Source: Candidatus Thalassarchaeaceae archaeon
Lineage (GTDB): Archaea; Thermoplasmatota; Poseidoniia; Poseidoniales; Thalassarchaeaceae
Assembly: GCA_030747885.1 (NCBI GenBank)
Contig: JASLJW010000049.1
Coordinates: 1 to 35,204 of the forward strand
Direction of reading: 5' to 3'
Length of the DNA: 35,204 nucleotides
Every line of letters begins with the position of its first letter. The stretch's first letter is position 1. Below, piece after piece: positions 14,397 through 33,519 of this stretch. The position numbers and the translations under genes are program-made. The notes below the pieces were generated by a model. It was not told the DNA's origin. It ran no database searches and worked only from the letters and a program-made list of their open reading frames with translations.

Positions 14397-16007
14397 ATGG
14401 ATGTCCTTCCCTCTAGGGTTAATCGGTCTGACGAGATATTTATGGAAAGAACTGCCCATAATAAGGGACTGGTCCTTACTTTGAAGGATGAATTACAGAA
14501 GATAGAGAAGGGAGGCGGCGAAAAATATGTTGAGCGCCACCGAAATCGTGGAAAAGCATTAGCTAGAGAGCGCATTCAATCAATATGTGATCCTGGAACT
14601 GCCTTCTTGGAAATCTCTCCATTGGCAGCTCATGGGTTGTATGATGGAAGAGCCTCATCAGCTGGACTTGTTACAGGGATTGGGGTAGTACATGGTCGAG
14701 AATGTATGTTTGTTGCTAATGATGCGACTGTGAAAGGTGGCTCATATTATCCGATGACTGTTAAGAAGCATATTCGTGCACAAGAGATCGCAGAAGAGAA
14801 CAACATACCTTGTATCTATCTTGTCGACAGTGGAGGAGCATTTCTCCCAATGCAAGATGAAGTATTTCCAGATAAAGGCCACTTTGGTAGAATATTTCGC
14901 AATCAAGCAATTATGTCTGGAAAAGGAATTCCACAAATTGCTGCCGTTTGTGGTTCTTGTACCGCTGGAGGTGCATATGTTCCAGCTATGTCTGATGAAT
15001 CAATCATCGTTAAGGGAAATGGTACAATCTTCTTGGCAGGCCCTCCTTTGGTTAAGGCTGCAACTGGAGAGGAAGTTTCTGCTGAAGATTTAGGCGGAGC
15101 AGATGTTCATACTCGACTATCAGGGGTTGCAGATCATTTTGCTGAAGACGAGCCAGAAGCATTACGGATGGTTAGGAACATAGTGGAAAACCTAAATCCA
15201 ACACAAAAGACCCGTCTAGATACCATCGATTCAGAACCTCCTCGACATGATATTGAAGATCTTCTAGGGATTATTCCAGAAGATAACAGAACTCCATATG
15301 ATGTCAGAGAAGTGATTTCTAGAGTAGTTGACGGTTCCCGATTTCATGAATTCAAACCACGTTATGGGACCTCTTTAGTTTGTGGTTTTGCTCGGATTCA
15401 TGGATATCCAGTAGGAATCGTAGCAAACAATGGAATTTTGTTTTCTGAATCTTCTTTGAAGGGAGCACATTTCGTTGAACTTTGTGGCCAACGTGGTGTT
15501 CCCCTAGTTTTCTTACAGAATATTACTGGCTTTATGGTTGGCAAAGATTACGAAGCAGGCGGAATCGCGAAAGATGGAGCAAAGTTAGTAACTGCAGTTT
15601 CTTGTGTTCCAGTTCCTAAATTTACAGTGATTATTGGGGGTTCTCATGGTGCAGGAAATTATGGCATGTGTGGTAGAGCGTATGATCCACGATTTTTGTT
15701 TACGTGGCCCAATGCGAGAATATCCGTAATGGGAGGGCCTCAGGCTGCACAGGTTCTCAGTACAGTAAAGCAAGACCAGAGAATTCGAGAGGGATTAGAA
15801 CCAATGAATGATGCAGAATTGAAGGCATTTGAAGAACCAACATTGCAGAAATATGAGACTGAGGGAAGTCCATACTATTCAACCGCCAGATTATGGGATG
15901 ATGGAATTATTGATCCGAGAGACACTCGTGACATCTTGGGACTCTGTATTAGTTCTAGTCTCAACGCCCCTTTACCAGATACGAATTATGGTATATTCAG
16001 AATGTGA
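14397..16007 (+). CDS. liuB: 3-Methylcrotonyl-CoA carboxylase (or geranyl-CoA carboxylase) carboxyltransferase beta subunit
   Basis: Long identical runs to MCC-beta as I remember it: '[22 protein letters not shown]', '[26 protein letters not shown]', '[12 protein letters not shown]', '[16 protein letters not shown]', '[29 protein letters not shown]'. Confidence 0.92.
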
Positions 16008-16011
16008 TAAT

Positions 16012-16878
16012 ATGAAGTCTGTAACCAATAATCAACCTGAAACCGAATTATGTAAATTAATTATTGAAGGTCCTGTTGCAAGAATCACTCTTTCCCGACC
16101 TGATGTGTTTAATGCTCTTAACATTCAATTAATTTCTGAATTAATTGAAATTTTTGATTGGACATCTAGCAGATCTGTTTCTACACTAGGTGAATTGAAG
16201 GATTCAGAAGGAAATGAAAATCTAAGAGTATTAGTTTTGAATGGAGACGGTAGACATTTTTGTGCTGGAGCAGATATCAATATGATGAGAGACGCAGGTG
16301 CAAAAAGTTCTGAAGAGAACCGTATCGATTCCGAACGATTAGATCGATTATTCAATTCTCTATGGTCTCACCCATGTTTCACAATTGGAGCAATTCAAGG
16401 TGTGGCATTAGGAGGTGGTGCAGGATTGATTGCTTGTATGGATCATGTCATTGTGGAACCAAAGACGAGGATTGCCCTATCAGAAGGAAAATTAGGAATT
16501 TTACCCGCAGTTATTGGGCCATATGTGTATCGAAGACTGGGGAGTGCTCAATTTAGACGACTTGCGATGTTGGCATCTCGCATAGGGTCAGAAGAAGCCC
16601 TCCGAATAGGGATGGTTAACCAAGTCGAAGATAGTCCTGAAGATGCTTTAGTTGCAGTTGATGCTGTAATTTCGGAGGTATTGACTACTGGGCCAATGGC
16701 AGTTGGTGAAGCGAAACGATTGGCATTGACTTTTGATCGTTGGACTGGTACAGATGAGGAGTTACGGCTTTGGACATTAGATAAGACAAGTGAGATGCGT
16801 GCTTCGAGAGAAGGTCAAGAAGGTCTCGCCTCTTTTTTGGAAAAGAGACCTGCTGATTGGAAACCAGATCAGGAGTGA
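16012..16878 (+). CDS. liuC: Crotonase-fold enoyl-CoA hydratase, probably methylglutaconyl-CoA hydratase
   Basis: 'ARITLSRPDVFNAL', 'FCAGADINMM', 'GVALGGGAGLIACMDHVIV', 'EGKLGILPA', 'REGQEGLASFLEKRPADW'. The ATG lies 4 nt after the liuB stop. The position between the MCC beta and alpha genes matches the Pseudomonas liuB-C-D order. Confidence 0.78.
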   Translation: MKSVTNNQPETELCKLIIEGPVARITLSRPDVFNALNIQLISELIEIFDWTSSRSVSTLGELKDSEGNENLRVLVLNGDGRHFCAGADINMMRDAGAKSSEENRIDSERLDRLFNSLWSHPCFTIGAIQGVALGGGAGLIACMDHVIVEPKTRIALSEGKLGILPAVIGPYVYRRLGSAQFRRLAMLASRIGSEEALRIGMVNQVEDSPEDALVAVDAVISEVLTTGPMAVGEAKRLALTFDRWTGTDEELRLWTLDKTSEMRASREGQEGLASFLEKRPADWKPDQE

Positions 16879-16882
16879 TTGA

Positions 16883-18433
16883 ATGGCTGAGCCTGAATGG
16901 ATGAAGTCGGCTCCAACGCCTATTTCATCTGTTCTTGTTGCAAACAGGGGTGAAATTGCTTGTCGAATTATCCGAGCGTGCCAGGAGATGGGAATAGAGG
17001 GAATAGCAATTCAGTCAGATTCTGATACGGGGTCATTGCATTCAGAGATGGCAGACCGGGTAGTCAATTTACCAGGTACTAGTTTAGCTGATACATATCT
17101 CAATAGTGATGCGATTATCGAGGCTGCAAAATCATGTGGTGCTGATGCAATACATCCAGGGTACGGATTTCTTTCTGAGCGAGCAGATTTTGCAAAATCC
17201 GTAACCTCAGCAGGATTGATTTGGATAGGCCCCTCGCCTGATGCGATAAATTCGATGGGAGACAAAGTAACTGCACGACGTCATATGGAGGATGCATCTG
17301 TACCTGTTATTCCTGGAAGAGAAATATTGGTTGGAGGTGATGAAAACACTACCATTGACTCATTAGTTGATGCAGCGACTTCTGTAGGGTATCCTCTCTT
17401 GTTGAAAGCTAGTGCTGGAGGAGGAGGTAAAGGAATGCGGGTTGTTCGTGAGCCTAAACGTCTTCAACAAGAATTTGCAGCCGCTCAAAGAGAGGCAGAA
17501 ACTGCTTTTGGAGATGGAACTGTATACATCGAACGTCTTTTAGAAAATTCAAGGCATATTGAAGTACAAATTCTTGCCGATAATCATGGGAATACACTTC
17601 ATTTGTTTGAAAGAGAATGTAGTATTCAACGTCGTCATCAGAAGGTAGTGGAGGAGGCTCCTTCCCCAGTACTCGATCCAAAAACTAGGGATGCCATGGG
17701 TGCAGCAGCCGTTTCGGCAGCACAGGCAGTATCTTATTCGGGAGCAGGAACAGTCGAATTCCTACTTTCTCCGGATGGTTCATTCTATTTTTTAGAAATG
17801 AATACTAGACTTCAAGTTGAGCATCCCGTCACAGAATGTATATCTGGAATTGATTTAGTTGAACAGCAGATTCGTGTTGCATCTGGTCTTCCATTACCAT
17901 TCACTCAAACTGATTTATCGATAAGAGGGCATGCAATAGAAGTCAGAATATATGCAGAAGATCCGTCTCTAGGGTTCCTTCCAGCAACAGGACCGCTTGC
18001 GGTATTCCGTCCACCTGAAGGACCAGGTGTTAGGCTAGATACGGGTGTCCGCCAAGGAGATGAAGCAAGAATTGATTTTGACCCCATGCTTGCAAAGTTG
18101 ATTGTTCACGGATCCAGTCGAGATCAAGCAATTCGAAGAATGGAAAGAGCATTGCAATCGTTTGTTATTCTTGGAGCCACAACGAATGTTGGTTTTCTAA
18201 TTGATATTATGCGTCATGAATCTTATATCGCTGGAGAAACCACTACTAATTTCATAGATATTCATTTCCCTGATGGTTGGAATTCGAAAATGTCCAACTC
18301 AACAGCAGCTGTTTTGGCCGCATCAGCAGAATTCATGGGCCTTCATAGAAATCATGCAAAATCATCTATGGAAGATGGTGGTAGAACTACATCAAATGAT
18401 CCATTTTTGCTTTTGTCTAGGAGATTCCCTTGA
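16883..18433 (+). CDS. liuD: Biotin carboxylase component of acyl-CoA (methylcrotonyl-CoA) carboxylase alpha; lacks a BCCP domain
   Basis: 'VLVANRGEIACRIIRA', 'IHPGYGFLSE', 'YPLLLKASAGGGGKGMRVV', 'EVQILADNHGNTLHLFERECSIQRRHQKVVEEAP', 'GAGTVEFLL', 'FLEMNTRLQVEHPVTE'. AGGAG lies 8 nt upstream of the ATG. Confidence 0.92.
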   Translation: MAEPEWMKSAPTPISSVLVANRGEIACRIIRACQEMGIEGIAIQSDSDTGSLHSEMADRVVNLPGTSLADTYLNSDAIIEAAKSCGADAIHPGYGFLSERADFAKSVTSAGLIWIGPSPDAINSMGDKVTARRHMEDASVPVIPGREILVGGDENTTIDSLVDAATSVGYPLLLKASAGGGGKGMRVVREPKRLQQEFAAAQREAETAFGDGTVYIERLLENSRHIEVQILADNHGNTLHLFERECSIQRRHQKVVEEAPSPVLDPKTRDAMGAAAVSAAQAVSYSGAGTVEFLLSPDGSFYFLEMNTRLQVEHPVTECISGIDLVEQQIRVASGLPLPFTQTDLSIRGHAIEVRIYAEDPSLGFLPATGPLAVFRPPEGPGVRLDTGVRQGDEARIDFDPMLAKLIVHGSSRDQAIRRMERALQSFVILGATTNVGFLIDIMRHESYIAGETTTNFIDIHFPDGWNSKMSNSTAAVLAASAEFMGLHRNHAKSSMEDGGRTTSNDPFLLLSRRFP

Positions 18434-18442
18434 GGTGATTTT

Positions 18443-18946
18443 ATGGTAGATCTCAAAGATTCTAGTGGAAGGATTTGGAAAATCCAGGTAAGTGGTTCTC
18501 CAGTTGTTCCAATTTCTATCGAATCAGATGGGGGGGAAATTGATTCATCTGAGATATCAATCAGTCTAGATCCTCGTCCTAATAGATTGGTTATCCATAG
18601 AAACGGAGTAGAGCAAGTTGTTTTCTGTACAAAGGTTGGAGACAAATGGTGGGTGCATCTTGATGGATCTGTAGTTGTCTTTGAAGTAATCGAACCCGGT
18701 GCATCTACATCTGGGAATAACGATGGGGAATTAACTGCTCCAATGCCCGGAAAGGTTCTGGAAGTATTGGTACCTGAAGGGGCTTCAGTTTCTGAAGGTC
18801 AACCACTAATGGTCTTGGAGGCAATGAAGATGGAACACCGAATCCTTGCTGACCTTCCAGGAATAGTTACAGCAATCCATTATGCCCCTGGAGATCAAGT
18901 GGATGCTGGAGCAGTTCTATTAGATTTGGATACTGAAAATGAATAA
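18443..18946 (+). CDS. Biotin carboxyl carrier protein (BT-like N-region plus biotinyl domain)
   Basis: Biotinylation motif 'LEAMKMEH' sits in a lipoyl/biotinyl fold context ('APMPGKVLEVLVPEGASVSEGQPLMVLEAMKMEHRILA'). GGTGA lies 4 nt upstream of the ATG. The ORF is in the same frame as the preceding ORF, separated by TGA plus 3 codons. Confidence 0.85.
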   Translation: MVDLKDSSGRIWKIQVSGSPVVPISIESDGGEIDSSEISISLDPRPNRLVIHRNGVEQVVFCTKVGDKWWVHLDGSVVVFEVIEPGASTSGNNDGELTAPMPGKVLEVLVPEGASVSEGQPLMVLEAMKMEHRILADLPGIVTAIHYAPGDQVDAGAVLLDLDTENE

Positions 18947-19000
18947 TTTCAATTGAATTATTATTTTTTATTAATTGAATTTCCCAATTGAAAATTAAAT
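18947..19000. terminator. AT-rich convergent (bidirectional) termination region between the BCCP gene and serS
   Basis: 54-nt gap between convergent stops with a T-tract ('tattttttatt') of the archaeal oligo-T terminator type. It also holds repeated palindromic CAATTG-containing words (CAATTGAA 18948, TAATTGAA 18970, CAATTGAA 18984; CAATTGCA 19004 lies just inside serS). Function was not tested. Confidence 0.3.
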
Positions 19001-20284
19001 TTACCAATTGCATTTTTCTAGATGCGTTTGTTCTTTGAACCAAGGTTGTAGAACTGCAGGAATTCGCACTCTTCCGTCATCTTCTTGGAATTGTTCCATA
19101 ATTGCAACTAGAGCTCTAGAAGTTGCAACCGCTGTAGAATTCAATGTATGGACTGAAGAGTTACCTTCCGAAGTTCTGAATCTCATTCGTAGTCGATTGG
19201 CTTGATAATCTGTACAATTAGAACATGAAACCACTTCTTTGTAATTACTAACACCTGGCAACCAGGCCTCTAAATCATATTTTTTGGCAGCAACAGTCCC
19301 CATATCACCTGTACAAATGTTGACTACACGGTAATGAAGCCCTAATTCATCCCATAAGTCAATACAATTCTGTAGAAGATCTTCATGATGATCCCATGAT
19401 TCATCTGGTTTGCAGATTATAATTTGTTCAACCTTGGTGAATTGATGTACTCTCCAAATTCCTTTGTCGGACAATCCATGCGCTCCTACTTCGCGCCTAA
19501 AGCAAGGACTAACTCCAACCATTTTCAGAGGTAGTAATGCCGGTTCAATGATTTCGTCCATGAACATCGCAGTTAGAGGATGTTCACTTGTTGCAATCGC
19601 ATAATATCCATCGGGTTGAATATCATACATGACAGTCTCAAAATCACTCAAATCAGTCACACCTTCGTATGATTCTCGATTCATCATAACTGGAGGTTGG
19701 ACTAATGTATAGCCCCGATTTACTAGAAATTCGATTGCATATTGCTGCAATGCTAATTCTAGGCGTGCAAGATCTCCTTTGAGATAGTAAAATCTTGATC
19801 CAGTTACTTTAGCAGCCCTCCCCAAATCAACCCATGAGTTTTCCTCGATGAGGTCATTGTGTACCTTTGGATCAAAATTGAATTTTGGTTTTTCTCCATG
19901 TATTGAATGAGGTGTATTTCCTTCATCATCATCACCCTTGGGAACACTTTCATGCAGAATATTGGGTATTTTCATGCGGATCCTATCTCTTTTTTCTTCA
20001 GTCTCATCTGCCTTTGAACCCAATTCTTCAATTTGTGCTCCAAGGTTAGAAACTTGAGCAAGGATTCTATTTGCTTCATCTACATCTCCAGTTTTCTTTG
20101 CAGCAGCAATTTCCCTCGCAGCTTCATTTCTTTGTTTTCGAATCTGATCTGCTCTGTAACGAAGGTCTTTCCATTCTTGATCCAATGTAATGACTTGATT
20201 GATTAAATCGTGAGAGATTCCTCTGCGATCATGATCTGCCCGAATAACCTCGGCCAGTTCTCTGAACATTCGCATCTCGAGCAT
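19001..20284 (-). CDS. serS: Seryl-tRNA synthetase (bacterial-type class II)
   Basis: N-terminal coiled-coil arm beginning 'MLEMRMFRELAEVIRADHDRRG'. Class II motifs 'SPCFRREVGAHG', 'RVHQFTKVEQ', 'NSTAVATSRALVAIMEQ'. The track start at 20308 is a GTG; I prefer ATG 20284 by alignment to SerRS N-termini. Confidence 0.92.
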   Translation of the reverse strand: MLEMRMFRELAEVIRADHDRRGISHDLINQVITLDQEWKDLRYRADQIRKQRNEAAREIAAAKKTGDVDEANRILAQVSNLGAQIEELGSKADETEEKRDRIRMKIPNILHESVPKGDDDEGNTPHSIHGEKPKFNFDPKVHNDLIEENSWVDLGRAAKVTGSRFYYLKGDLARLELALQQYAIEFLVNRGYTLVQPPVMMNRESYEGVTDLSDFETVMYDIQPDGYYAIATSEHPLTAMFMDEIIEPALLPLKMVGVSPCFRREVGAHGLSDKGIWRVHQFTKVEQIIICKPDESWDHHEDLLQNCIDLWDELGLHYRVVNICTGDMGTVAAKKYDLEAWLPGVSNYKEVVSCSNCTDYQANRLRMRFRTSEGNSSVHTLNSTAVATSRALVAIMEQFQEDDGRVRIPAVLQPWFKEQTHLEKCNW

Positions 20285-20327
20285 ATGAACGGGCCTAGGA
20301 GGGGGCACTTCGCTTCAACGGTTCGCA

Positions 20328-22466
20328 TCAAAAGAGGGTGATATTGAATGCCAACGCATCGAATCCAAGAATCACTATAGTTGTGAGTAGGTATCCTAGA
20401 ATTGACCCACCATTTAGTAATGGTAAACCTGCTTGAGGTTTTCCTCTTGCAACCTGAGTCATTAGAATCATGTAACCTATCAATCCACCAATCAGGGTCC
20501 CAAATGCCACTGTTGTTGGTCCGTGCAAGCCAGCGAATCCAACTTCATTGGGTAACCAACTCATGGCAGAAATTACCAAAATTCCTGGGAAGATTACATC
20601 TCCCAATCCCATGAACATAGCATCCGAGGTTTTCTTTTGTTCTTTTTCAGGCTTGAAGGTTAAATCACTAGTTTCGATAGATTCCTTTGAAATCTGACTT
20701 TTCCTATCTCTTTCTACCATTGTTCCTTCATCTGCATTAAGGAATGAATACTCTTTGTCCTTAGGAGCTACCAATAGAATTGGAAGTTTTAGATCAATCA
20801 TGGTATCAGCAAGAGTAAGCATATGTTTGCTACCATTTACAGCCCAATGGTCATAAAATGCCATTGCAACCATGAAGATAATTACAATCCATGGAACAAA
20901 TGAAACTCCTAGCATTACACTCACTCCAGCCCCAACAAGTATTCCCGTAGTGTTTACGACATACCATTCTGGCCATAGGATAATAGCGGCCATTAGAACA
21001 ATGCTTAATCCAAATGCAATCAAGTCAGCCCAACTTACTCCAATTCCTGCAACTTCGAAAGGAGCCGCCTCAGATAGTTTCCACACCACCATATTCAATG
21101 GTTCATCGAATGAACTTGAATTCGTGTCGAATAAAATCACTCCTTCTTTCAGAATGTTGTAATCTGAGTGAGTTCGATATTGAATTGCGATAGCAACCAT
21201 TTCATCTCCAGAGATTGTAGTAGTTCGAGTACGATCAATTTTTGAACTTCCCATGAAAACATTTAGCTCTTCTCCATCTAGAACCCACAAATCATTCACA
21301 CCTCCATTACAGCAGTCTTCCAACAATAGGCCTCTGATTGGTCCGTCAAATGCTCCTTCGAAACTCACTGCTTCGTTCGCAATGACGGTTCCATTGGAAT
21401 GAACTCTGAATCCATTTACCACCCCATCTATTCTTCCTAAATACAGACTGTATTCATTTGCAGTCTCATTCTTTATCTCATTGGTATCACTACCGTAAGT
21501 CACTGCTGTGAACATATTTCCTTCTGGAAGAGTGTAATTCCATACAGGCTCAATAAAGGGTGCATCGAATCCTTCTCCATGAGGTTCGTTTGGAATTTCA
21601 AAGACTCCAGCCCAACGAGTTGAAACGATAAGCATATGATTTTCTCCAATATGCTCTGAAGCAAGGATATTGTTAGGATCAAATCCTTGAGGCATTAACC
21701 ATTCCCAGTTTGCGTTCCTTGAACTGTTGACTTCTTCTATTGGTTTGAATGGGTCAATTTTCATTAGACTACTTCTCACAATATGCCATGGTTCTCCTGA
21801 ATCAACAAATCCAAGATTGCAATCATCATCGTATCTTTCTAGAATCGTTCCATCATTTGAATCAATTCTAATCCATTGTGTTGAGTCACACATTACGAAA
21901 TCGTTAGTAGATGACATGAAGAATAGATTGGGAGAAGCTATTTCGCCCTGTAAATTAGAGACATTTGTAGTCCAATTTACTGTACCTCCAGCATATAATC
22001 CATCTCCTCCAATTGCTTGATTCACTGAAATGAGATCATTTCCATCATAGAGAATTAAATGTTCAACATCACTTAATCCTTGAAGAATTTGTGCACCCGA
22101 ATCCGTTTCTGTTGTAGTTGCAGTAAGTTCATCTGCTGGAAGAGCCAAATGCGCCATTGGAACTAGGGAGTACGACAACGCAATCCAAAGTACGAATAGA
22201 ATCCCAAATTGGATAAATTTCTGCAAATTTTTCTTTGCTAGCCAGATTATTGTAAAGGTGAATAGGAGGATGAATACTCCTTCAATAAGGATAAATCCGA
22301 CTCCGGTCTCGGAACCTGGTCCGAAAGCACGAAATTCATCTCGATTGTAAAATGGTTGAATTAATGTTGCAAGATATATTGTAATTGTGAACATCCCTGC
22401 CATTCCAAACATGGATGTCCATTGCCCCTTCAGTTCCTCCATTAGGGGTATCTCGGCCTTCGCCAT
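20328..22466 (-). CDS. Presenilin/SPP-type (A22) intramembrane aspartyl protease homologue with a large ectodomain inserted between TM3 and TM4
   Basis: Three hydrophobic spans, about 365 polar residues, then six more spans. These carry 'AFYDHW' (YD), 'FMGLGDVIFPG' (GxGD) and 'QAGLPLLNGG' (PAL-like) in the expected TM6/TM7/TM9 order. A long loop lies between the two catalytic-Asp helices. The first ATG is at 22466; the track start at 22511 is TTG and collides with the folC ATG. Confidence 0.72.
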   Translation of the reverse strand: MAKAEIPLMEELKGQWTSMFGMAGMFTITIYLATLIQPFYNRDEFRAFGPGSETGVGFILIEGVFILLFTFTIIWLAKKNLQKFIQFGILFVLWIALSYSLVPMAHLALPADELTATTTETDSGAQILQGLSDVEHLILYDGNDLISVNQAIGGDGLYAGGTVNWTTNVSNLQGEIASPNLFFMSSTNDFVMCDSTQWIRIDSNDGTILERYDDDCNLGFVDSGEPWHIVRSSLMKIDPFKPIEEVNSSRNANWEWLMPQGFDPNNILASEHIGENHMLIVSTRWAGVFEIPNEPHGEGFDAPFIEPVWNYTLPEGNMFTAVTYGSDTNEIKNETANEYSLYLGRIDGVVNGFRVHSNGTVIANEAVSFEGAFDGPIRGLLLEDCCNGGVNDLWVLDGEELNVFMGSSKIDRTRTTTISGDEMVAIAIQYRTHSDYNILKEGVILFDTNSSSFDEPLNMVVWKLSEAAPFEVAGIGVSWADLIAFGLSIVLMAAIILWPEWYVVNTTGILVGAGVSVMLGVSFVPWIVIIFMVAMAFYDHWAVNGSKHMLTLADTMIDLKLPILLVAPKDKEYSFLNADEGTMVERDRKSQISKESIETSDLTFKPEKEQKKTSDAMFMGLGDVIFPGILVISAMSWLPNEVGFAGLHGPTTVAFGTLIGGLIGYMILMTQVARGKPQAGLPLLNGGSILGYLLTTIVILGFDALAFNITLF

Positions 22467-22510
22467 GATGGTAGGGAACTTCAAATTGCATTTCAGTATA
22501 TGGACATACA

Positions 22511-23977
22511 ATGGGCACAGAAGGGGGGTCAGAGGATTTTGAGGACAAACTCACACCTCGTGAGTGGCTTGAAACTCGAAAAAGTATTGGAATGCGCCCT
22601 GGATTAGAAATTACATATGCGATGTTAACCCGTTTAGGAATGCCCCAGATGTCCTTTCCATCTATACATGTGGCAGGATCAAATGGTAAAGGAACCACTT
22701 CAGTATTCCTTGCAAATACTCTTACATTTTCAGGAACTAAGACAGGTCTGTTCACTTCCCCTCATCTCTGTCGTGTTGAGGAAAGGATTCGAATTGATGG
22801 ATGTCCTGTTGAACCTAGACAATTGGATAAGGCAATACATGCAGTTAGGGTAATGTCTAGAGAAGATCCAGTACTTGAACCAACATATTTTGAGACCTTG
22901 TTTCTTTCAGCTATGATTTGTTTTCGAGCATTGAATGTGAAACGTGCCGTAATTGAGGCAGGCCTTGGTGGACGTTTGGATGCCACAAGATGTTGTTATG
23001 CAGATTGTACAATTTTGACTGAGATTTCCTTAGAACATACTGATGTATTGGGCGATTCATTAGAACTAATTGCAAGAGAAAAATCTGCGATTGCACGACC
23101 TGGAGCAAAAATGATTGCTAGATGGCCATATGATCCTTCAGTTATGATGGCAATAGAAGAAGCAACTAGTTGGGGTTGTGGATATTGGTGGCGAGGGGAT
23201 CGACTGACTTTGGTTAGTTTTGAAAATGCAAATGAGCCATTTAGAGGAATAAAAAGTGGAGATGGAGAAACCATTCCTATTGGATTGTATGATGGATCCA
23301 TGACAATGAAAATGGATAATGCAATGTTAGGACATAGTGCTGCTCAATTTGTAATGGACCCACCATTGGTTCCTGCTTTACACGATGTAATGGAACGAAC
23401 ATTTTGGCCCGGTAGGATGCAGGAAATTACGGGACCAAAAGATGTAGAACTCCTCCTAGATTGTGCCCATAATCCCAGTGGTTTAACGAAAATGGTTGAT
23501 GAATTGAAAATAAGGAAAATAAGAGAGGAAAATGCTGGACGCAAATTCTCTCCATCTGCTTTACTGATTGGAGCCACACATCAGAAAGATTTGGCCATTT
23601 TTGTGCATCCCATTGTAGAGTTAATTTCTGAAATGGGAAATCCAATGGTAGTAGTTACAGAGCCACCAAATGGTCGTCTTGCACCTGTTTCATGTGACGA
23701 TTTGGCGGCTGAAATAAAATTGCAATACCCCTCTGCTAGAATTCAGGTTAGACCCGAAATTCAAGTGGCTCTTTCAACAGCCATAGATGAAGCTGTAGAT
23801 TCATCATCTCATTCAGTTTTTGATGGAGTTACTGGAACAGTATGGAGTTTCGGGAGTATTCATTTGATTGGTGGGATTCTTTCAATTCTTGGGCAAGATA
23901 CCGATGAAGCATTAACCACAATTAGATGGCAGGATGGAGACGTTATTGGAGACCGTGATGTTCCCATGAAACCATAA
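22511..23977 (+). CDS. folC: Folylpolyglutamate synthase / dihydrofolate synthase (Mur-ligase family)
   Basis: 'IHVAGSNGKGTTS' P-loop, 'TSPHL', 'IEAGLGGRLDAT', 'ITEISLEHTDVLG', 'LLDCAHNPSG'. Confidence 0.88.
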   Translation: MGTEGGSEDFEDKLTPREWLETRKSIGMRPGLEITYAMLTRLGMPQMSFPSIHVAGSNGKGTTSVFLANTLTFSGTKTGLFTSPHLCRVEERIRIDGCPVEPRQLDKAIHAVRVMSREDPVLEPTYFETLFLSAMICFRALNVKRAVIEAGLGGRLDATRCCYADCTILTEISLEHTDVLGDSLELIAREKSAIARPGAKMIARWPYDPSVMMAIEEATSWGCGYWWRGDRLTLVSFENANEPFRGIKSGDGETIPIGLYDGSMTMKMDNAMLGHSAAQFVMDPPLVPALHDVMERTFWPGRMQEITGPKDVELLLDCAHNPSGLTKMVDELKIRKIREENAGRKFSPSALLIGATHQKDLAIFVHPIVELISEMGNPMVVVTEPPNGRLAPVSCDDLAAEIKLQYPSARIQVRPEIQVALSTAIDEAVDSSSHSVFDGVTGTVWSFGSIHLIGGILSILGQDTDEALTTIRWQDGDVIGDRDVPMKP

Positions 23978-24010
23978 GCGAGTGATTTCAGAGACTGATT
24001 AGGTGAAGCC

Positions 24011-24451
24011 ATGAGTGAGAAGTGGGACCGTCGATTTATCGATTTAGCATTGCATATTAGTGATTGGAGTAAAGACCCATCAACAAAGGTGGGTTGTGTA
24101 GTAGTTGGGGCAGATCGTGAGATTCGTTCCACCGGGTTCAATGGATTTCCAAGAGGAATTGAAGATTCAATAGAACGTCTAGAAGACCGAGAAATGAAAT
24201 ACCCTCTTATTTGCCATGCTGAAGAGAATGCAATAATGCATGCGGCACGAATTGGAATTTCATTGAAGGATTGTGTAGCATATGTAACATGGCCACCATG
24301 TACTCGTTGTGCTCGTTCTTTGATTCAAGCAGGTGTTGTTGAAGTTGTTTTCCCAAAAGACATCGAAATTCCTGATAGATGGGTCGAAGATTTTGAAAGG
24401 TCACTTTCAATGATGAATGAGGCTGGAGTAATAGCCCGCTCTACATCATAG
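24011..24451 (+). CDS. Deoxycytidylate (dCMP) deaminase, ComEB-like
   Basis: Zinc motifs 'CHAEENAI' and 'PCTRCA'; 'VGCVVVGADREIRSTGFNG'. AGGTGA lies 4 nt upstream of the ATG. Confidence 0.88.
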   Translation: MSEKWDRRFIDLALHISDWSKDPSTKVGCVVVGADREIRSTGFNGFPRGIEDSIERLEDREMKYPLICHAEENAIMHAARIGISLKDCVAYVTWPPCTRCARSLIQAGVVEVVFPKDIEIPDRWVEDFERSLSMMNEAGVIARSTS

Positions 24452-25000
24452 TCATGACTCAATTGTAGAGAGTAGAATTTTTAGTGAGTCGTCCAGTTCT
24501 TGTCTAGTCCCATCATTAATGATTAGTAAATCTGCCAATTCTGCAGTTGCGATAAGTGCTTGTCCAGATGGATTCTTTGCTACTGCTTCTGTTTCTTCTT
24601 GTGCGAGAAAATCTTGGTAGTTTTCAGGATCTCCCTCTCTGGCTCGTTGTTGCATTCTTTCCCATCTCAAATCTGCTGGTACATTGACTTCGATTAGTAG
24701 AAACCCCTCCCTTTCTCGCAAGGCGTGAACTTCGTCAGGAGTTCTAATTGAGTCAATGATGGTGGGTTGTTCAGGAGAGATTCTTTCAAGAAGTAATTCT
24801 GCCAATATTCCAGGTCCACCTTCGGAACGAAGAGTTCTCCCACCTTGAGTTAGATTTTCACGGTTAATTTCCTTCCCATTTTCCCTTAGCCAATGTCTTA
24901 TTGAATCTGAACATGAACATCCATTCCATCCTTGTTCCACAAACCATTCGACTACGGTGGTCTTTCCAGCAGCATTGCGCCCTGTGACTGCTAGAAGCAT
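24452..25000 (-). CDS. P-loop nucleotide/nucleoside-monophosphate kinase-like protein (CoaE / UPF0200-like)
   Basis: Walker A 'VTGRNAAGKTTV', 'IIDSIRTPDEVHALRE', and the lid-like 'RWERMQQRAREGDPENYQDFLAQEE'. GAGGA lies about 7 nt upstream of the ATG. The substrate cannot be told from sequence alone. Confidence 0.55.
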   Translation of the reverse strand: MLLAVTGRNAAGKTTVVEWFVEQGWNGCSCSDSIRHWLRENGKEINRENLTQGGRTLRSEGGPGILAELLLERISPEQPTIIDSIRTPDEVHALREREGFLLIEVNVPADLRWERMQQRAREGDPENYQDFLAQEETEAVAKNPSGQALIATAELADLLIINDGTRQELDDSLKILLSTIES

Positions 25001-25072: not shown

Positions 25073-28000
25073 TTATTCCCATCCATCATCATCATCATCA
25101 TCATCAAAGTCATCATCTTCGAATAGTAAATCTACAAATTCGTCATCTATGCCGTCCTTATTCATTTGACGAATACTAACGAATGTAACTGTTGGGACAA
25201 CAATAATTGCAATTGCAATAAGCAGGATAGTCAGAGGATTTTGTCGAGCTTGTTCAATCCAACCTAATCCCCAACCGTATGCAACATCTATACCTACAGA
25301 AATGGCATTATCTTGTTCATCTATCTCTTCTATCTCATTACTAGCATCAACAACAACTCGAATTCTTTCTATGCCTTTTTGAGCATCCCAAATTGTATCG
25401 ATGTAGATTGTATCTCCATCTTCTATTCGATCAATTCTTTGTGTATTGAATGGTTCAGTAGAATCACCTGCATAGAATGAGACATCGAATGATGAATTCA
25501 GAGAACCTCCGAAGTTTGTTAGGAATGCTCTGAGTTCTACATCTGTACCGACACTAACACGTTGCTGCCCTACTTCGAGTCTCACTGCCCTTAATTCAGG
25601 ACTCTTATCTGCTCCAAGTGTAACCCATGCTAGTTCGAGATCATTATCCAAATAACTTGGTTCTCTTACAGGATCACTTTCACTATTGCTAGTTTGTGGG
25701 AATGTATTTCCTGCTGAATCTTCACCAGTAAGATAGAACCCTACAATATATCCCGTTCGAGGTGTTACTAGTCCTTCACTGGTAAGATCAACTGTTCCAG
25801 TCCATAAGAGAAGGTCATCTTGTAATTCCATTGAAAGAACAGAGAATCCAGCGGCAATTGTAGTCGTCCCATCTCTCATTATCCAGTGTACTTTTTGAGG
25901 AGCTTGTGCTAAATCTGAACATCGCTGATCGGAGGGGTCATTGACACATTCTTCGGTTCCAAGGAATGCAACATCGACTGCAGTAAGATCTGCTTGAGTA
26001 CCTATATCGATTATATCGATTGGAAGGATTCTATGAATTACTCTAGGTGGAGTATGGTCAACACTTAGTTGCAAAGTAGTAGAAACAGAATCTCTAGTCA
26101 TATCTTCACCTCGTCCAGGAATACCGGTGATTCCGGTCAAGAAAGTCCTAGTTTCCGCTGAAGCGAGAGTTGGAGCCGCGCTCAATGGAACTTCCACCAT
26201 GTAATCTCCATTTTCAGTTAGACTTCCATCAGACCACATTTGTACTCCATCGAATACTTCTACTATAATCCCTAGATTATTTGGTGGGGGCGTTTGAGAA
26301 TCTTCATACACTACTCTTCCAGTCCATTGAATACGATCATCTGGCCTAATTGAAGTGGAACTATCTATGGGTCCAACTCGTGGATGCATCACATCGGTGA
26401 TTGAGTAACTGGTTGGATCAAGAATCAAGTCGTTTTCTACGTGGAATGTACGATCAACAAATTCAATTCGACGCATATTTGCACCCAATTGTTTGTATTC
26501 AAATGCTAAATCACTAATTTCTTCATCTGGCCATTCCCAAGACATCTTGAAACGGAAGTCAACGAGAATCCAAGGTAATCCCGTATCGTTACTAATTACA
26601 GTAGTTTGACTATTAGGAAGAATTTCGATATAATCTGAATCACTCCAGAAAGAATTGTTTCTTCCAGAAAATGAAATAGTTTGGCGATCTCTTTCAGGAT
26701 CTGGGCCCTCAAAGTCGAAAATTAAACTAATTATTTCAAAATCTATTATTCCATTTGCATCAACCAATCCAGCACTAATTACTTGTTCAGTGCCTGCGAA
26801 AATTGCATCTCCATCATTATGGCCGGACCAATGAATTCCTGTGAAAACAGACTCCATGTCCTTTCTTGTTCGATATGTAGCAAGATCAGAAGAGAAACCA
26901 GGTCCTTCTCCTGAGTCTAGTAAATTACCTGCAGGATCATTTCCAGTAACATAGTATGAAACAGAAGCAAGGTTAGGATTTCTACTATCATCAATAGTGG
27001 TGAAGAATCTCTTGTTTTCTGCGGATGTTGTGTTAACCATTGTCCGATTCATATATTCGTCAGCATCTGCAATTCCATTTCGATTTATGTCATGATCTGC
27101 TTCCACCCAATAGTGTAGAGTAAGTTCGGTGGGGTCTCCTACTCCGTCTTCAACATCAATTACAATTGATTGATCATATCTGGCAGCAACATAGTCGTCT
27201 TGTTTAGGGCTATTATGGGTGATTTCTGGAGATGTAGCATCAATGTAGAAGGTTCGCCTTGAGTCAGAACTTGGTGGTGAAACTAAAGTCGGATCTCTTT
27301 CATTATATGTTTGAACTTCGTAAGTTATTCCATCAGGAATATCGATATCTGGTACTGTTAAACTGATGAAGAAAGAGCCATCTGGGTTATTTTGATCCTT
27401 CCAAGAAGATTGTACAAAGTCTCCTTGTTCTCCCTTTTGTGCAATTTGAACATCAAATACAGAATTCAAAGGAGTATCTTCAGTATCTGCGAACCACATT
27501 TGGCCTTGGAAAAAGATAGTTTCACCTGCTGAAACCCATGCTCCATCAGTTAGATTTTGACTTGTTGTAATTCCCTCCACATCTCTGACGCCTAGCCAAC
27601 CTAGCCCATATGTCTGATTTACTCTGATTCCCGTGTTTCCAGTTTCTGATAACATAGCTGGAGTAGATCCTTGATCATCGGTACATGTGACTCTAAATCC
27701 TACATTGTCATTGTTATGTTCAGGAAATTCACTGGTAACTCGGAATCTCCAATGGATTTCAAAAATACCATTGTTATTTGTGGTGTATGTGCCACCTTCT
27801 TGCCCTGGCTGAATAGGAATAATCCAATCTGCTGGATCGTCATCCATCAGAGTTCCAGTTTGTGACCATGTTAGTGATGGAGAATCTGAACTAGGTGAAG
27901 CAACAAAATCTAGAGTAGCATCCGTAATCCCAGATGCTCCTTCTCCGATGACATGTCGAGTTACAACTTCGTAAGCTTGGCTACGCTCGTGTAGAATCAT

Positions 28001-30094
28001 CCCTTGATCCCAAATGATGTCTAAGTTCACTGTTTGCATGGTATATGAGAGTTCAAATGAATTGATTTTTACTAGGCCTGGAGCAGTGGACGAAAGACTG
28101 ATTGGAATAGTTATAGTGCCTACACCAGTTCCTGGAATTTCGGAATTAATTGCACTTAGTAGGTTTGCATTGCTTGCATCTACTATCCCAAGAAGAGTTC
28201 CAGTATGAGCCCATTCATCTGTTCCATCATCCCCAATATCCATCTTTACATTTTGAGGTGCTTGACTGAAAATTTGAATGTTGAAATCATCTAAAGTGGG
28301 CGTATTAGCGTTGCCTGATCCTGAATAGAAATAGATGTAGAAATAGATGTATGAACTACTCCCAGAAAAAGAAATTGTTTGCCCAGGAGTATTAACGCTG
28401 TATTGCTGTCCGATTTGAAAATACATATTGAAATATGAATTACCGGGAGTTGTTGAATTCCACCATACTTTTGCAGCAACTGGAGCAGTTCCTGTAGTGC
28501 CTAGATATTTGTAACCTCTAATGTAACCACTTGAAGAGAAGCTTGAGACATATGTTAGTTGAACTCGATCTATAATTGGGGAGATACTGTTGTTGGTACC
28601 GTTGAGATAGGCTCGCCATTTGACTTGGTTTCCAGCATTTGCGAATGTAATTTGATTCCCTAGAGTTGCTGCTTTCCAAGAGTTTCCACCATCCACACTA
28701 ACTTCGATTTCTACAGAAGTTCCACTAGGTTCGTATGTGATTAGTCCGTTTAGTGTAATTGCACTGATTGGAGAAGCCAAATTTGTCGTTGATCCTATTG
28801 CTATACTACTTGATTGAGACGATGCTCTATGTTCAAAAGTAGCCCCAATTCCCGACTTTAAGACAGTTCGACTGGTTGTAGTAGGACAATAACTTGTAAT
28901 GGCTGAGTAAAAACAAGAGTAGAGAACATTTCCTTCTCCATCATCTGCAATTCCATAATGGCCTTTACTGTTCAGAGTGATTGAACCTTGGAAATCAACC
29001 CAAGCCCCAGCACTATGTAAAACAAAATGAGTAGACGAAGAAGTCCGATAAGAATTAATCAAAATCCTAGGGTAGTTGACTGCAAGCCCGGATACTGTAC
29101 CTGAAATTGTAGTACTCGTCCCAAGATAAGTGATAGAATTCGCAGTAGTAGGATTAGATCTTGAAACATTCCATAGATTGTAAGTCAATGATCCGGAACT
29201 TGAACGAACCAGAACTTTCAGAGAATCACTTTCTTGATCTATTGCAATCCCGACAGGATACGAACTAGAACTAGACATTGTCCAACTACCAACACAACTC
29301 CATGTAGAATCGGTAACCGTCCATTTTGTAATTAATCGATAATTGTATGAAACAGCCCAAACAGTATTCTCCCCATCTGCAGCTAAGTCGTAAAGTGAAT
29401 AAAGGGCTTGACTATTGCAATTGTTGTATTGTTTTGTTACTTGATTTACAACATTTGATGAAGATGAGTTGTAAGAATTTATTGCAGGTGTTTGATACAC
29501 CGTACTTGAACCATAATTACTTGAGAATAAGGTATCACCTACCTTTACTAAGGCTCCTGGGTAGTTCCAATTCATACTATTTGGTACAGTCATTGCATTC
29601 CCGCTGACTGTAGGGCTAATGTACCCTTGATCCCCATTTGAAGCAAATCTTCCAGAAGTATTGTGATATGAAGATGAAGCACTATCCCAATCCCTAGAAG
29701 CAGCTAGATTGTTTGAACTGGTGGTTTCTTGAGTATTGAGAGTTATTTCGTCATTAGCTACTTTCAAATTATTCCTATACCAACTAGAGAAGTATGTACC
29801 TGTGAATGATGCTGTGGTAGTCCCAGCACCTCCAAATTCACTGTCCGTAGTTCGGTTTTCCCATTGTGTATTCTGCGCAGTCCCTTCAATGGCAAATCGT
29901 GCTTGAGTAACTGCTGCACCATATGGGAGTGTTATTCCGGGTGTCTGAGCATCTCCACCAGTCGCACTAGTGAAACTATGGCTGAATGTAGTAGTCCCAT
30001 CAGCAAACTGAGTTTCTGTAGTTGCTGCCGAGACGAGTGGCGAAAGTGACATGGAAATAAGCAGAAAAAGAACAAATATTGGAGTACGTCCCAT
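25073..30094 (-). CDS. Giant (1673 aa) secreted type-I membrane-anchored surface protein: candidate S-layer/adhesin glycoprotein
   Basis: Sec signal peptide 'MGRTPIFVLFLLISMSLSPLVSA|ATTE'. The ectodomain is S/T/N/G-rich with many N-x-S/T sequons and paired Cys. A membrane-proximal CARDB-like module runs 'VELRAFLTNFGGSLNSSFDVSFYAGD...IRVVVDASNEIEEIDEQDNAISV'. There is a single TM 'LTILLIAIAIIVVPTVTFVSI' and an acidic tail 'DDEFVDLLFEDDDFDDDDDDDGWE'. GGAGGT lies 6 nt upstream of the ATG. Confidence 0.85.
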   Translation of the reverse strand: MGRTPIFVLFLLISMSLSPLVSAATTETQFADGTTTFSHSFTSATGGDAQTPGITLPYGAAVTQARFAIEGTAQNTQWENRTTDSEFGGAGTTTASFTGTYFSSWYRNNLKVANDEITLNTQETTSSNNLAASRDWDSASSSYHNTSGRFASNGDQGYISPTVSGNAMTVPNSMNWNYPGALVKVGDTLFSSNYGSSTVYQTPAINSYNSSSSNVVNQVTKQYNNCNSQALYSLYDLAADGENTVWAVSYNYRLITKWTVTDSTWSCVGSWTMSSSSSYPVGIAIDQESDSLKVLVRSSSGSLTYNLWNVSRSNPTTANSITYLGTSTTISGTVSGLAVNYPRILINSYRTSSSTHFVLHSAGAWVDFQGSITLNSKGHYGIADDGEGNVLYSCFYSAITSYCPTTTSRTVLKSGIGATFEHRASSQSSSIAIGSTTNLASPISAITLNGLITYEPSGTSVEIEVSVDGGNSWKAATLGNQITFANAGNQVKWRAYLNGTNNSISPIIDRVQLTYVSSFSSSGYIRGYKYLGTTGTAPVAAKVWWNSTTPGNSYFNMYFQIGQQYSVNTPGQTISFSGSSSYIYFYIYFYSGSGNANTPTLDDFNIQIFSQAPQNVKMDIGDDGTDEWAHTGTLLGIVDASNANLLSAINSEIPGTGVGTITIPISLSSTAPGLVKINSFELSYTMQTVNLDIIWDQGMILHERSQAYEVVTRHVIGEGASGITDATLDFVASPSSDSPSLTWSQTGTLMDDDPADWIIPIQPGQEGGTYTTNNNGIFEIHWRFRVTSEFPEHNNDNVGFRVTCTDDQGSTPAMLSETGNTGIRVNQTYGLGWLGVRDVEGITTSQNLTDGAWVSAGETIFFQGQMWFADTEDTPLNSVFDVQIAQKGEQGDFVQSSWKDQNNPDGSFFISLTVPDIDIPDGITYEVQTYNERDPTLVSPPSSDSRRTFYIDATSPEITHNSPKQDDYVAARYDQSIVIDVEDGVGDPTELTLHYWVEADHDINRNGIADADEYMNRTMVNTTSAENKRFFTTIDDSRNPNLASVSYYVTGNDPAGNLLDSGEGPGFSSDLATYRTRKDMESVFTGIHWSGHNDGDAIFAGTEQVISAGLVDANGIIDFEIISLIFDFEGPDPERDRQTISFSGRNNSFWSDSDYIEILPNSQTTVISNDTGLPWILVDFRFKMSWEWPDEEISDLAFEYKQLGANMRRIEFVDRTFHVENDLILDPTSYSITDVMHPRVGPIDSSTSIRPDDRIQWTGRVVYEDSQTPPPNNLGIIVEVFDGVQMWSDGSLTENGDYMVEVPLSAAPTLASAETRTFLTGITGIPGRGEDMTRDSVSTTLQLSVDHTPPRVIHRILPIDIIDIGTQADLTAVDVAFLGTEECVNDPSDQRCSDLAQAPQKVHWIMRDGTTTIAAGFSVLSMELQDDLLLWTGTVDLTSEGLVTPRTGYIVGFYLTGEDSAGNTFPQTSNSESDPVREPSYLDNDLELAWVTLGADKSPELRAVRLEVGQQRVSVGTDVELRAFLTNFGGSLNSSFDVSFYAGDSTEPFNTQRIDRIEDGDTIYIDTIWDAQKGIERIRVVVDASNEIEEIDEQDNAISVGIDVAYGWGLGWIEQARQNPLTILLIAIAIIVVPTVTFVSIRQMNKDGIDDEFVDLLFEDDDFDDDDDDDGWE
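25085..25105 (-). repeat. Perfect (GAT)7 trinucleotide microsatellite encoding the poly-Asp tail of the giant surface protein
   Basis: The plus strand reads (ATC)x7 at 25085-25105. On the minus strand this gives GAT x7, i.e. DDDDDDD, followed by GWE and the stop. Confidence 0.95.
28327..28350 (-). repeat. Perfect 12-nt tandem duplication inside the giant gene
   Basis: The plus strand reads 'agaaatagatgt' twice (28327-38 and 28339-50). It encodes 'YIYFYIYFY' within '...SGSSSYIYFYIYFYSGSG...'. Confidence 0.95.
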
Positions 30095-31053: not shown

Positions 31054-32022
31054 ATGTCCAACGGCTATGGATGGATTCGAGAGATCCTTCTTGCTGCTGG
31101 TATGATTCTAGTTTTATACGGCTCACTTGTATTGATGACTGGTTCTTCCCCTCCAATGGTTGTTGTTGAATCACAATCAATGATGATGGACGAAAATTCC
31201 CATATTGGAAGTATAGATCCAGGAGATATCATCCTAGTCACTGATTCAGATAAAAGAGATGTGATTACATATGCTGAAGCAGTAGAACCGGGCAGTCGTT
31301 TCGAAGGATTTTCCACTCACGGAATGCCAGGTGATGTAGTAATCTACAGAAAGAATGGGGGCAATGATACTCCAGTAATTCATCGGGCAATATTGTTTGT
31401 TTCAGCGAATGAAATTGAAGATACACAATCTGATGGTACTTGTTTGGAGGGAGAATTGGATGAACAATTGATTAGTTCCGAAGGTTCAGTTGGAGCATGT
31501 ATTCTTACTTGGGATGTACGCGGGACATCAATATCTAATGTGTCTTCGATTAGTTTGAATCTGACTGGTTATTCTTGCCAATCGCATGGATATTTGGTAA
31601 TTCAGAATTGGGTCCCTGAGCATGAAGGGTATCTAACTTCAGGAGATAATCCAAGGACTAATGGCTGTACTGTAGATCAACTCATTGCTACAGGATCTAG
31701 TGGTTCAGGGCCACACTATTTTGGATTAAGAGATGAATTTGGAAAACCTGTAACTGCTGTCCGTTCAGATTGGGTATCTGGAATTGCAGGCCCTGAGATT
31801 CCATGGTTTGGAATTGTCAAACTTGCAGCATCAAGTAATTCTAGTGAAGTTACTTCTGATGCTTGGACCAATCTCTTCTTAGCTGTTACAATTTTACTTG
31901 GAAGTGTAATGATTATAGAGAAAAGCATGAGTTACCTAGTTGGTTCTTCTCCTGAATTTGAACATTCAAATCAAGAGTCTGAAAAGAATCGGGATCATGA
32001 AAATTCCTATGAAGAGGAGTGA
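31054..32022 (+). CDS. Archaeal/eukaryotic-type (Sec11-like, S26B) signal peptidase I with an inserted Cys-containing segment and a C-terminal TM
   Basis: N-terminal TM, then 'VVESQSMMM' (catalytic Ser box), 'PGDIILV', 'PVIHRAILFV' (His box), 'YLTSGDNPRTNGCTVDQ' (GDN...D box). GAGGAG lies upstream of the ATG, inside the end of the preceding gene. Confidence 0.8.
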   Translation: MSNGYGWIREILLAAGMILVLYGSLVLMTGSSPPMVVVESQSMMMDENSHIGSIDPGDIILVTDSDKRDVITYAEAVEPGSRFEGFSTHGMPGDVVIYRKNGGNDTPVIHRAILFVSANEIEDTQSDGTCLEGELDEQLISSEGSVGACILTWDVRGTSISNVSSISLNLTGYSCQSHGYLVIQNWVPEHEGYLTSGDNPRTNGCTVDQLIATGSSGSGPHYFGLRDEFGKPVTAVRSDWVSGIAGPEIPWFGIVKLAASSNSSEVTSDAWTNLFLAVTILLGSVMIIEKSMSYLVGSSPEFEHSNQESEKNRDHENSYEEE

Positions 32023-33471: not shown

Positions 33472-33519
33472 TTGAATGCTCCATTGATTTATCACCGCTG
33501 GTTTCTTACCTCCCACCTA

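Follow-up and report, generated by a model that had tools for sequence, protein, structure and literature searches.

A presenilin-family intramembrane protease of marine group II archaea with a predicted beta-propeller inserted between its third and fourth transmembrane helices

Archaeal PSH is the minimal, partner-free model of presenilin, for which substrate choice and the contribution of the nicastrin ectodomain are still debated. What might it mean, then, when a PSH carries an ectodomain of its own? The question is raised by a gene in a 35,204-nucleotide stretch of DNA from a Candidatus Thalassarchaeaceae archaeon (contig JASLJW010000049.1 of assembly GCA_030747885.1; the whole stretch is called the window here). 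The gene specifies a presenilin-type membrane core that is interrupted, between transmembrane helices (TM) 3 and 4, by about 370 residues predicted to fold as a beta-propeller (Table 1). The evidence below shows that the gene is a marine group II (MGII) orthologue of PSH and that the insert is a selected part of it; the propeller may act as an extracellular exosite or lid over the protease. A PSH of this kind would make ectodomain-dependent substrate selection addressable in one polypeptide.

The reading frame is intact on the minus strand and runs from an ATG at 22466 to a TGA stop at 20328-20330, giving 712 amino acids (aa). The longest mechanically called frame begins at a TTG at 22511, which is the first base of the divergent neighbor gene; the N-termini of orthologues support the ATG as the preferred start over the TTG, and that of one of them (P0276, 'MADSEIVDLL...REQWTSMAGMA') matches the ATG start of the window protein. 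A first-pass annotation of this DNA had proposed a presenilin-type protease on the basis of motifs corresponding to YD, GxGD, and PAL, and curated profiles bear this out. The protein scores 218.2 bits, against a cut-off of 125, with NCBIfam NF041679, the equivalog hidden Markov model (HMM) of archaeal PSH, which it matches in two stretches, and residues 480-697 correspond to positions 91-279 of the 283 in Pfam PF06550 (E = 3.2e-50; 171.7 bits, cut-off 23.9). A sequence search of the PDB returned the PSH of Methanoculleus (4HYC, E = 2e-28) as its sole match. In this alignment query residues 489-577 pair with PSH 112-200 and 615-703 with PSH 212-297, ungapped around the motifs, and the residues ahead of the insert (TM1-TM3) align weakly to PSH residues 5-100. 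D539 and D623 therefore correspond to D162 and D220, the catalytic aspartate pair of PSH (PMC9282858).

All of the motifs quoted in the first-pass annotation are present: AFYDHW (YD at residues 538-539, nt 20850-20855), MGLGDVIFPG (GLGD at residues 620-623, nt 20598-20609), and AGLPLLNGG (PLL at residues 682-684, nt 20415-20423), the last of which aligns with 'GLPPLNGG' of PSH. A scan of one genome per species gave 444 relatives, and the conservation counts below refer to 80 long-form sequences from independent genomes. Y538, GLGD, and PLL are found in 80/80 long forms and D539 in 79/80, the remaining one having an ambiguous residue at that position. An AlphaFold2 (AF2) model and hydropathy concur on nine helices, three before the insert and six after it (8-42, 55-78, and 82-108; 479-497, 501-521, 525-545, 621-637, 649-673, and 680-700 in the model), which is the order that the first-pass annotation had read from the hydrophobic spans. 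Both catalytic aspartates fall within predicted helices, D539 in 525-545 and D623 in 621-637. The loop between TM6 and TM7 is of low confidence or disordered in the model, with a predicted local distance difference test (pLDDT) below 50 at residues 576-615.

By sequence, the gene is the Poseidoniales (MGII) orthologue of archaeal PSH, a nine-helix GxGD aspartyl protease with its catalytic motifs intact, and it already carries the database name 'presenilin family intramembrane aspartyl protease PSH'. With the PSH of Methanoculleus marisnigri (MCMJR1; PDB 4HYC/4HYG; MEROPS A22) it shares the curated HMM family, the nine helices, the aligned YD/GxGD aspartates, a PxL motif before TM9, and a single chain without partner subunits. 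It differs in that PSH has 301 aa and a TM3-TM4 loop of about 10 residues, where the window protein has a propeller of about 370. Owing to the insert, the protein lacks the compact build of PSH, in which TM3 and TM4 are joined by a short loop and the whole chain has about 280-300 aa. This is the sole departure, every sequence feature otherwise pointing to A22/PSH, and we regard the protein as a variant architecture inside the PSH/A22 family.

The insert lies exactly between TM3 and TM4, as had been proposed: profile positions about 88/89 and 91 flank it, as do PSH residues about 100 and 112, and the bounds that we find, nt 21033-22142, are close to the earlier 21042-22139. It is polar and acidic in composition (57 Asp and Glu vs 17 Lys and Arg). 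In the full-length AF2 model, built from a 38-sequence alignment (mean pLDDT 70.8; predicted template modeling score, pTM, 0.61), the insert is all-beta, its central blades mostly reaching pLDDT values of 75-93, and a model of the insert alone (pTM 0.77) contains the same 27 strands. In two Foldseek searches against the PDB, 50 of the 50 best matches were beta-propellers, the best being DDB1 BPB, BamB, BBSome, and WD40 domains (probability 1.00, E down to 2.8e-8, Foldseek TM-scores of 0.44-0.56, identity 13% or less). These predictions agree with the propeller-like fold suggested in the first pass, and a beta-propeller of about seven blades (27 strands, roughly 7 x 4) is the most likely fold of the modeled insert.

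The recurring strand-like blocks that had prompted this suggestion do fall in predicted beta-strands, but they do not amount to a detectable sequence repeat. We looked for a blade repeat by comparing blade with blade in hhalign (80-sequence alignment) and rejected it, as the probabilities were 3% or less, the same as for transmembrane controls. The insert had also been described as rich in sequons and in Cys, and neither description holds. Seven N-x-S/T sequons are observed vs 4.06 expected from composition (P = 0.09, not significant), and only four Cys are present, of which C216 is near-invariant among the long forms (79/80), whereas C193 occurs in 41/80 and C385 and C386 in 32/80. A vicinal disulfide between C385 and C386 was considered as a functional hallmark and rejected because the pair occurs in only 32/80 and is clade-specific. 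Within MGIIb (alignment A1), the stretch around this pair has D384, C385, C386, G388, G389, N391, D392, L393, W394, and V395 invariant or nearly so. In some divergent long forms (P0168 and P0075), the corresponding 'DCCxGGxNDLWV' motif reads GDDQRDGRIDVWV or ADYNFGGINDVFV, which we take to resemble the calcium-binding loops of FG-GAP-type propeller repeats, a likeness that no Pfam match backs.

Pfam, read up to E = 10, gave no family for the insert of the window protein, nor for those of 12 homologues, and none of the named propeller repeats (WD40, Kelch, PQQ, FG-GAP, NHL, YVTN, and others) was matched in the insert. Searching 1.84 billion representative proteins with an insert profile gave 29 matches. 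In the full-length ones, of 688-779 aa, the matched segment spans about residues 105-480; PF06550 lies at the C-terminus in 10/10 of the long matches checked; and the shorter ones (e.g., P0096 and P0103) are truncated long forms, judged by match coordinates. Among the 1.84e9 representatives there was no free-standing or otherwise-fused homologue that could represent a trans version or a donor. As far as profile searches reach, the propeller is without a detectable relative outside PSH proteases.

An architecture of this kind could arise as an artefact, through chimeric assembly or through the joining of two genes, or the insert could be a cytoplasmic or disordered segment. The only points that lean this way are the low confidence with which the TM6-TM7 loop and the blades at either end of the insert are modeled. 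The occurrence of the long form speaks against it. The best 80 of the 444 loci cover the full length except for one that is cut at a contig end, and all of those named to order or below are Poseidoniales. Long forms occur in both families, Thalassarchaeaceae (MGIIb) and Poseidoniaceae/Poseidonia (MGIIa), as named in PMC6461757. Among 5.8 billion clustered proteins, about 75 clusters of 677-771 aa match at 99-100% query cover and 37-92% identity, and these are labeled Poseidoniales or Thalassarchaeaceae in their source databases. In 77-78 of the 80 loci the gene occupies the same slot, between a divergent FolC-like gene and a co-directional gene for seryl-tRNA synthetase (SerRS), and so do the most divergent long forms (P0081 and P0090). 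A chimera or a two-gene fusion was rejected given this recurrence in about 75 clusters and 80 independently assembled genomes with conserved synteny, which also places the gene in MGII. In addition, the HMM match resumes in register across the insert, the insert is predicted as folded beta structure, and the charge distribution and PSH topology considered below point outside the cell. As far as sequence data allow, we therefore give these artefactual readings almost no weight. One further long form, of 779 aa, occupies the same slot on an ENA contig of 3,002,195 bp (L088) with a local G+C of 69.5%, which is unusual for MGII; other loci checked lie at 38%-54% and the window at about 41%.

The insert is far more variable than the core. 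Mean pairwise identity over the 80 long forms is 62% in the core vs 24% in the insert, and positions conserved at 95% or more number 74/242 in the core vs 3/370 in the insert. The ratio of nonsynonymous to synonymous substitution rates (dN/dS), taken from 17 independent closely related pairs, is nevertheless low, at 0.05-0.24 (median 0.12) for the insert and a median of 0.066 for the core. A coding sequence of more than 1.9 kb is intact in 77/88 loci, the rest including short forms, contig-end truncations, and records with N. These ratios indicate that the insert is a selected functional module under purifying selection, with about twice the evolutionary freedom of the core, a pattern typical of an exposed domain.

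The survey of homologues also answered whether the insert is always present: it is found in the best 80 loci and is lacking in one Thalassarchaeaceae-labeled sublineage. A search with the core only (residues 473-712) recovered numerous shorter proteins (349-377 aa) that share 50-60% identity with it. In these short forms the end of TM3 runs directly into TM4 with no propeller; in examples such as P0276 (367 aa) and P0252 (357 aa), core identity is 52-60% and the same motifs are visible. Short-form genomes include GCA_029936055.1 and Thalassarchaeaceae-labeled metagenome-assembled genomes with the proteins HJM18428.1 or HJL54773.1. Each of the five short forms that were located lies in the slot described above, flanked by the FolC-like gene and SerRS, and one of these loci shares the downstream acyl-CoA carboxylase genes of the window; the genomes were labeled Thalassarchaeaceae or Poseidoniales by several independent NCBI submissions. 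The same slot and the shared core therefore make long and short forms positional orthologues. Because propeller-less orthologues exist in a closely related lineage, the propeller is an accessory module that is not required for the protease itself.

Two features of the propeller-less proteins are worth recording. P0238 (411 aa; L087 5001-6236) carries about 45 extra hydrophobic residues at the TM3-TM4 site, predicted as extra membrane spans, so that the TM3-TM4 loop looks like a preferred site of insertion. P0276 and P0252 have a longer extracellular TM7-TM8 loop, e.g., LPEMGPVVFDFWGDPTKPVHLG, than the window protein ('LPNEVGFAGLH', residues 638-648, nt 20523-20555), and this longer loop might partly compensate for the missing propeller.

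Such natural orthologues could be taken to mean that the propeller is a largely dispensable decoration, a historical insertion in a permissive loop that is kept mainly for folding or stability. The tolerance of the loop for the other insertion in P0238 and the very low order-wide conservation of the insert fit this explanation. It conflicts with the sustained purifying selection over about 1.1 kb of coding sequence in the 17 pairs, with retention of the propeller in the best 80 loci across both families, and with several strongly conserved insert motifs within MGIIb, and we consider it improbable.

Whether the propeller was gained or lost in these lineages was addressed with neighbor-joining (NJ) trees of SerRS and FolC, concatenated and separate, and of the PSH core rooted on Methanoculleus PSH. 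The SerRS and FolC trees separate MGIIa from everything else, including the short-form lineage, with 100% bootstrap, and place the short-form clade beside or inside the MGIIb long-form genomes (70% in the concatenated tree). SerRS alone joins the short-form clade to the window's own clade with 99.5%, and FolC gives 0% for that split. This conflict between the two flanking genes, seen when L081 and L085 are compared with the window clade, may reflect either recombination with a boundary at the PSH gene or an artefact of the trees. In the PSH-core tree the short forms fall outside all long forms, which weighs against loss; there, short-form monophyly has 90% support and long-form monophyly only about 40%. 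Since MGIIa and MGIIb are taken as sister families (PMC6461757) and the short-form clade lies beside or inside MGIIb, one ancestral acquisition of the propeller followed by one loss is the most parsimonious history, a probable one that the trees favor and do not prove.

On which side of the membrane does the propeller lie? Lys and Arg are concentrated in the TM2-TM3 (+2), TM6-TM7 (+12), and TM8-TM9 (+2) loops; the TM1-TM2 and TM7-TM8 loops, like the insert, have a neutral or acidic character. Because this alternation follows the positive-inside rule and matches the known topology of presenilin and PSH, the insert is predicted to be extracellular, consistent with the location proposed in the first-pass annotation. 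In the AF2 model the linkers are only about 8 and 2 residues long (first strand at 116 after helix 82-108; last strands at 470-477 before helix 479-497), and linkers this short would set the propeller directly atop the outer face of the membrane core. The N- and C-termini of a propeller are adjacent, which makes it well suited to being placed in a short loop. The transmembrane domains (TMDs) of presenilin enclose the substrates of gamma-secretase, and the route of entry under debate leads past extracellular loop 1 and between TMD2 and TMD6 (PMC13507816). By analogy, a propeller anchored at the outer end of TM3 would stand next to a gamma-secretase-type access region.

This placement suggested to us that the propeller is an extracellular exosite or lid that controls substrate access to the PSH-type core, a reading to which we assign a probability of about 0.5. 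From the outer face it would decide which membrane proteins reach the active site, as an accessory selectivity module outside the catalytic machinery. It might exclude substrates with bulky ectodomains and admit only signal peptides or shed stubs, or it might bind the short juxtamembrane stub of a substrate; the membrane core would then cut the transmembrane helix of the substrate as PSH or presenilin does. Clearance of signal peptides has been suggested as a candidate role for archaeal A22 enzymes (PMC8305020). Several points weigh against the exosite or lid: the function of archaeal A22 proteases is listed as 'Unknown', with no substrate (PMC9263693); the first and last blades are modeled at low confidence, and the pTM of the full-length model is only 0.61; a whole sublineage does without the propeller; and no order-wide conserved binding surface is evident in the insert, because it diverges so fast.

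The propeller could instead be a binding platform unrelated to gating, such as a tether to the envelope or S-layer, an oligomerization domain, or a sensor of a soluble ligand or glycan that switches the protease. Beta-propellers serve generally as scaffolds for interaction, adaptor or scaffold domains make up all of the best structural matches listed above, a fold retained despite rapid change in sequence fits co-evolution alongside a varying partner, and the propeller is dispensable in one lineage. The very short linkers, however, put it on the core rather than on an outward stalk, its occurrence solely in PSH, never free-standing or otherwise fused, argues for a protease-specific role, and the neighboring genes are housekeeping genes that include no conserved partner. 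We consider such a platform unlikely, though a more serious alternative than decoration.

The exosite or lid is favored because three intramembrane protease systems offer precedents for control of active-site access by an extracytoplasmic domain, namely, nicastrin, the PDZ tandem of RseP, and the PA domains of SPPL2. Nicastrin likewise forms a large extracellular domain over a presenilin-type core, and only a functional parallel is possible: it is a distinct subunit that has a transmembrane helix of its own and acts in trans, whereas the window propeller is fused in cis within a loop, and the nicastrin fold is not a propeller but aminopeptidase/transferrin-receptor-like. No nicastrin chain appeared in the PDB sequence search (E up to 10) or among the top-50 Foldseek matches. 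Nicastrin has been proposed to act as a steric barrier to substrates whose ectodomains are long (Bolduc 2016, as cited in PMC13507816). That the cis-fused propeller does, by convergence, the substrate-selection job of nicastrin in MGII archaea is a reading that we advance only tentatively.

SPPL2a/b/c (A22B) are GxGD proteases with a cis-fused luminal or extracellular domain, as is the window protein. They differ in being eukaryotic and in that their PA domain is N-terminal and of another fold, while the extra domain of the window protein is internal; SPP-type topology is also inverted relative to presenilin. Pfam gave no PA domain match in the window protein, and PF04258 (A22B) reached 20.5 bits, below its cut-off of 23.3. 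The PA domains of SPPL2 help to recognize substrates and to discriminate between them (PMC12043953). RseP/S2P proteases (M50) are prokaryotic intramembrane proteases with an extracytoplasmic domain inserted between transmembrane segments, and the periplasmic PDZ tandem of RseP is a size-exclusion filter (PMC7728848). They differ from the window protein in being metalloproteases of unrelated fold and mechanism, with PDZ domains instead of a propeller. The propeller is not homologous to nicastrin, the PA domain, or PDZ domains, and the likeness in each case is one of functional analogy only. The prolyl oligopeptidases, which are soluble serine peptidases, have a seven-bladed propeller above the catalytic domain that acts as a gating filter for the active site; they are compared here by analogy with no homology implied.

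We found no paper linking presenilin with MGII/Poseidoniales or with a propeller in a literature search that did not cover the survey of Raut, Glass and Lieberman 2021 (Proteins 89:232). If the proposed role is correct, the protein would be the first presenilin-family enzyme of prokaryotes to carry an ectodomain dedicated to filtering, and it would offer a tractable model of substrate selection by GxGD proteases. The long form is kept across a group that no other planktonic archaea exceed in abundance in the surface ocean, and the propeller-less orthologues in the same slot provide a natural comparison, with and without the domain, for substrate choice. The propeller family could also help to find a substrate or function for archaeal A22 proteases.

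Table 1. Features of the PSH-type gene and its neighbors in the window (nucleotide positions on the window; residues of the 712-aa protein)
Feature	Residues	Nucleotides	Strand	Basis or remark
Complete coding sequence, PSH-type GxGD intramembrane aspartyl protease with inserted ectodomain		20328..22466	-	Open reading frame (ORF), NF041679, PF06550, PDB 4HYC
TM1-TM3, N-terminal third of core	18-108	22143..22415	-	AF2 helices, hydropathy, weak PSH alignment, NF041679
TM2-TM3 loop KNLQK, basic, predicted cytoplasmic	79-83	22218..22232	-	2 K/R, 0 D/E
Inserted ectodomain, predicted all-beta, about seven-bladed beta-propeller, acidic	109-478	21033..22142	-	AF2, Foldseek
Approximate blades	130-172, 176-214, 215-262, 263-315, 316-366, 370-420, 421-466			Predicted
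Cys216	216	21819..21821	-	C in 79/80; one of three insert positions conserved at ≥95%
DCCNGGVNDLWV	384-395	21282..21317	-	Among best-conserved insert stretches within MGIIb
TM4-TM6 including catalytic YD	479-545	20832..21032	-	Alignment to PSH
TM6-TM7 loop, basic, predicted cytoplasmic	546-616	20619..20831	-	12 K/R; pLDDT < 50 at 576-615
TM7-TM9 including GLGD and PAL-type PLL	617-700	20367..20618	-	Alignment to PSH
SerRS gene		19001..20308	-	Pfam; 19 nt downstream of PSH stop, same strand
FolC-like Mur-ligase-family gene		22511..23977	+	Weak Mur_ligase matches; divergent, 44 nt upstream of PSH
1673-aa ORF, probable giant surface protein		25073-30094	-	Sole Pfam match a C-terminal CARDB domain (residues 1505-1599)
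Family M50 (site-2 protease) with PDZ domain, second intramembrane protease of the window		31966-33516	-	

The neighbors of the gene are housekeeping genes. SerRS adjoins PSH in 78/80 long-form loci and adjoins short-form PSH too, and the two genes are probably co-transcribed. The FolC-like gene adjoins PSH in 77/80 long-form loci and also in short-form loci, and it serves as a marker of the conserved PSH slot. A block of about 10 genes (window about 14400-25000; L081-L089) is kept across the order with or without the propeller. Besides PSH and its two neighbors, the FolC-like gene and SerRS, the block holds genes for a DEAD-box helicase, an AAA_18 kinase-like protein, a dCMP deaminase, a biotin carrier, a biotin carboxylase, an enoyl-CoA hydratase, and a carboxyltransferase. 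A tRNA scan and an Rfam scan of the whole window gave no matches. The M50 protease with its PDZ domain, encoded elsewhere in the window, belongs to the classical type of intramembrane protease with an extracytoplasmic filter domain.

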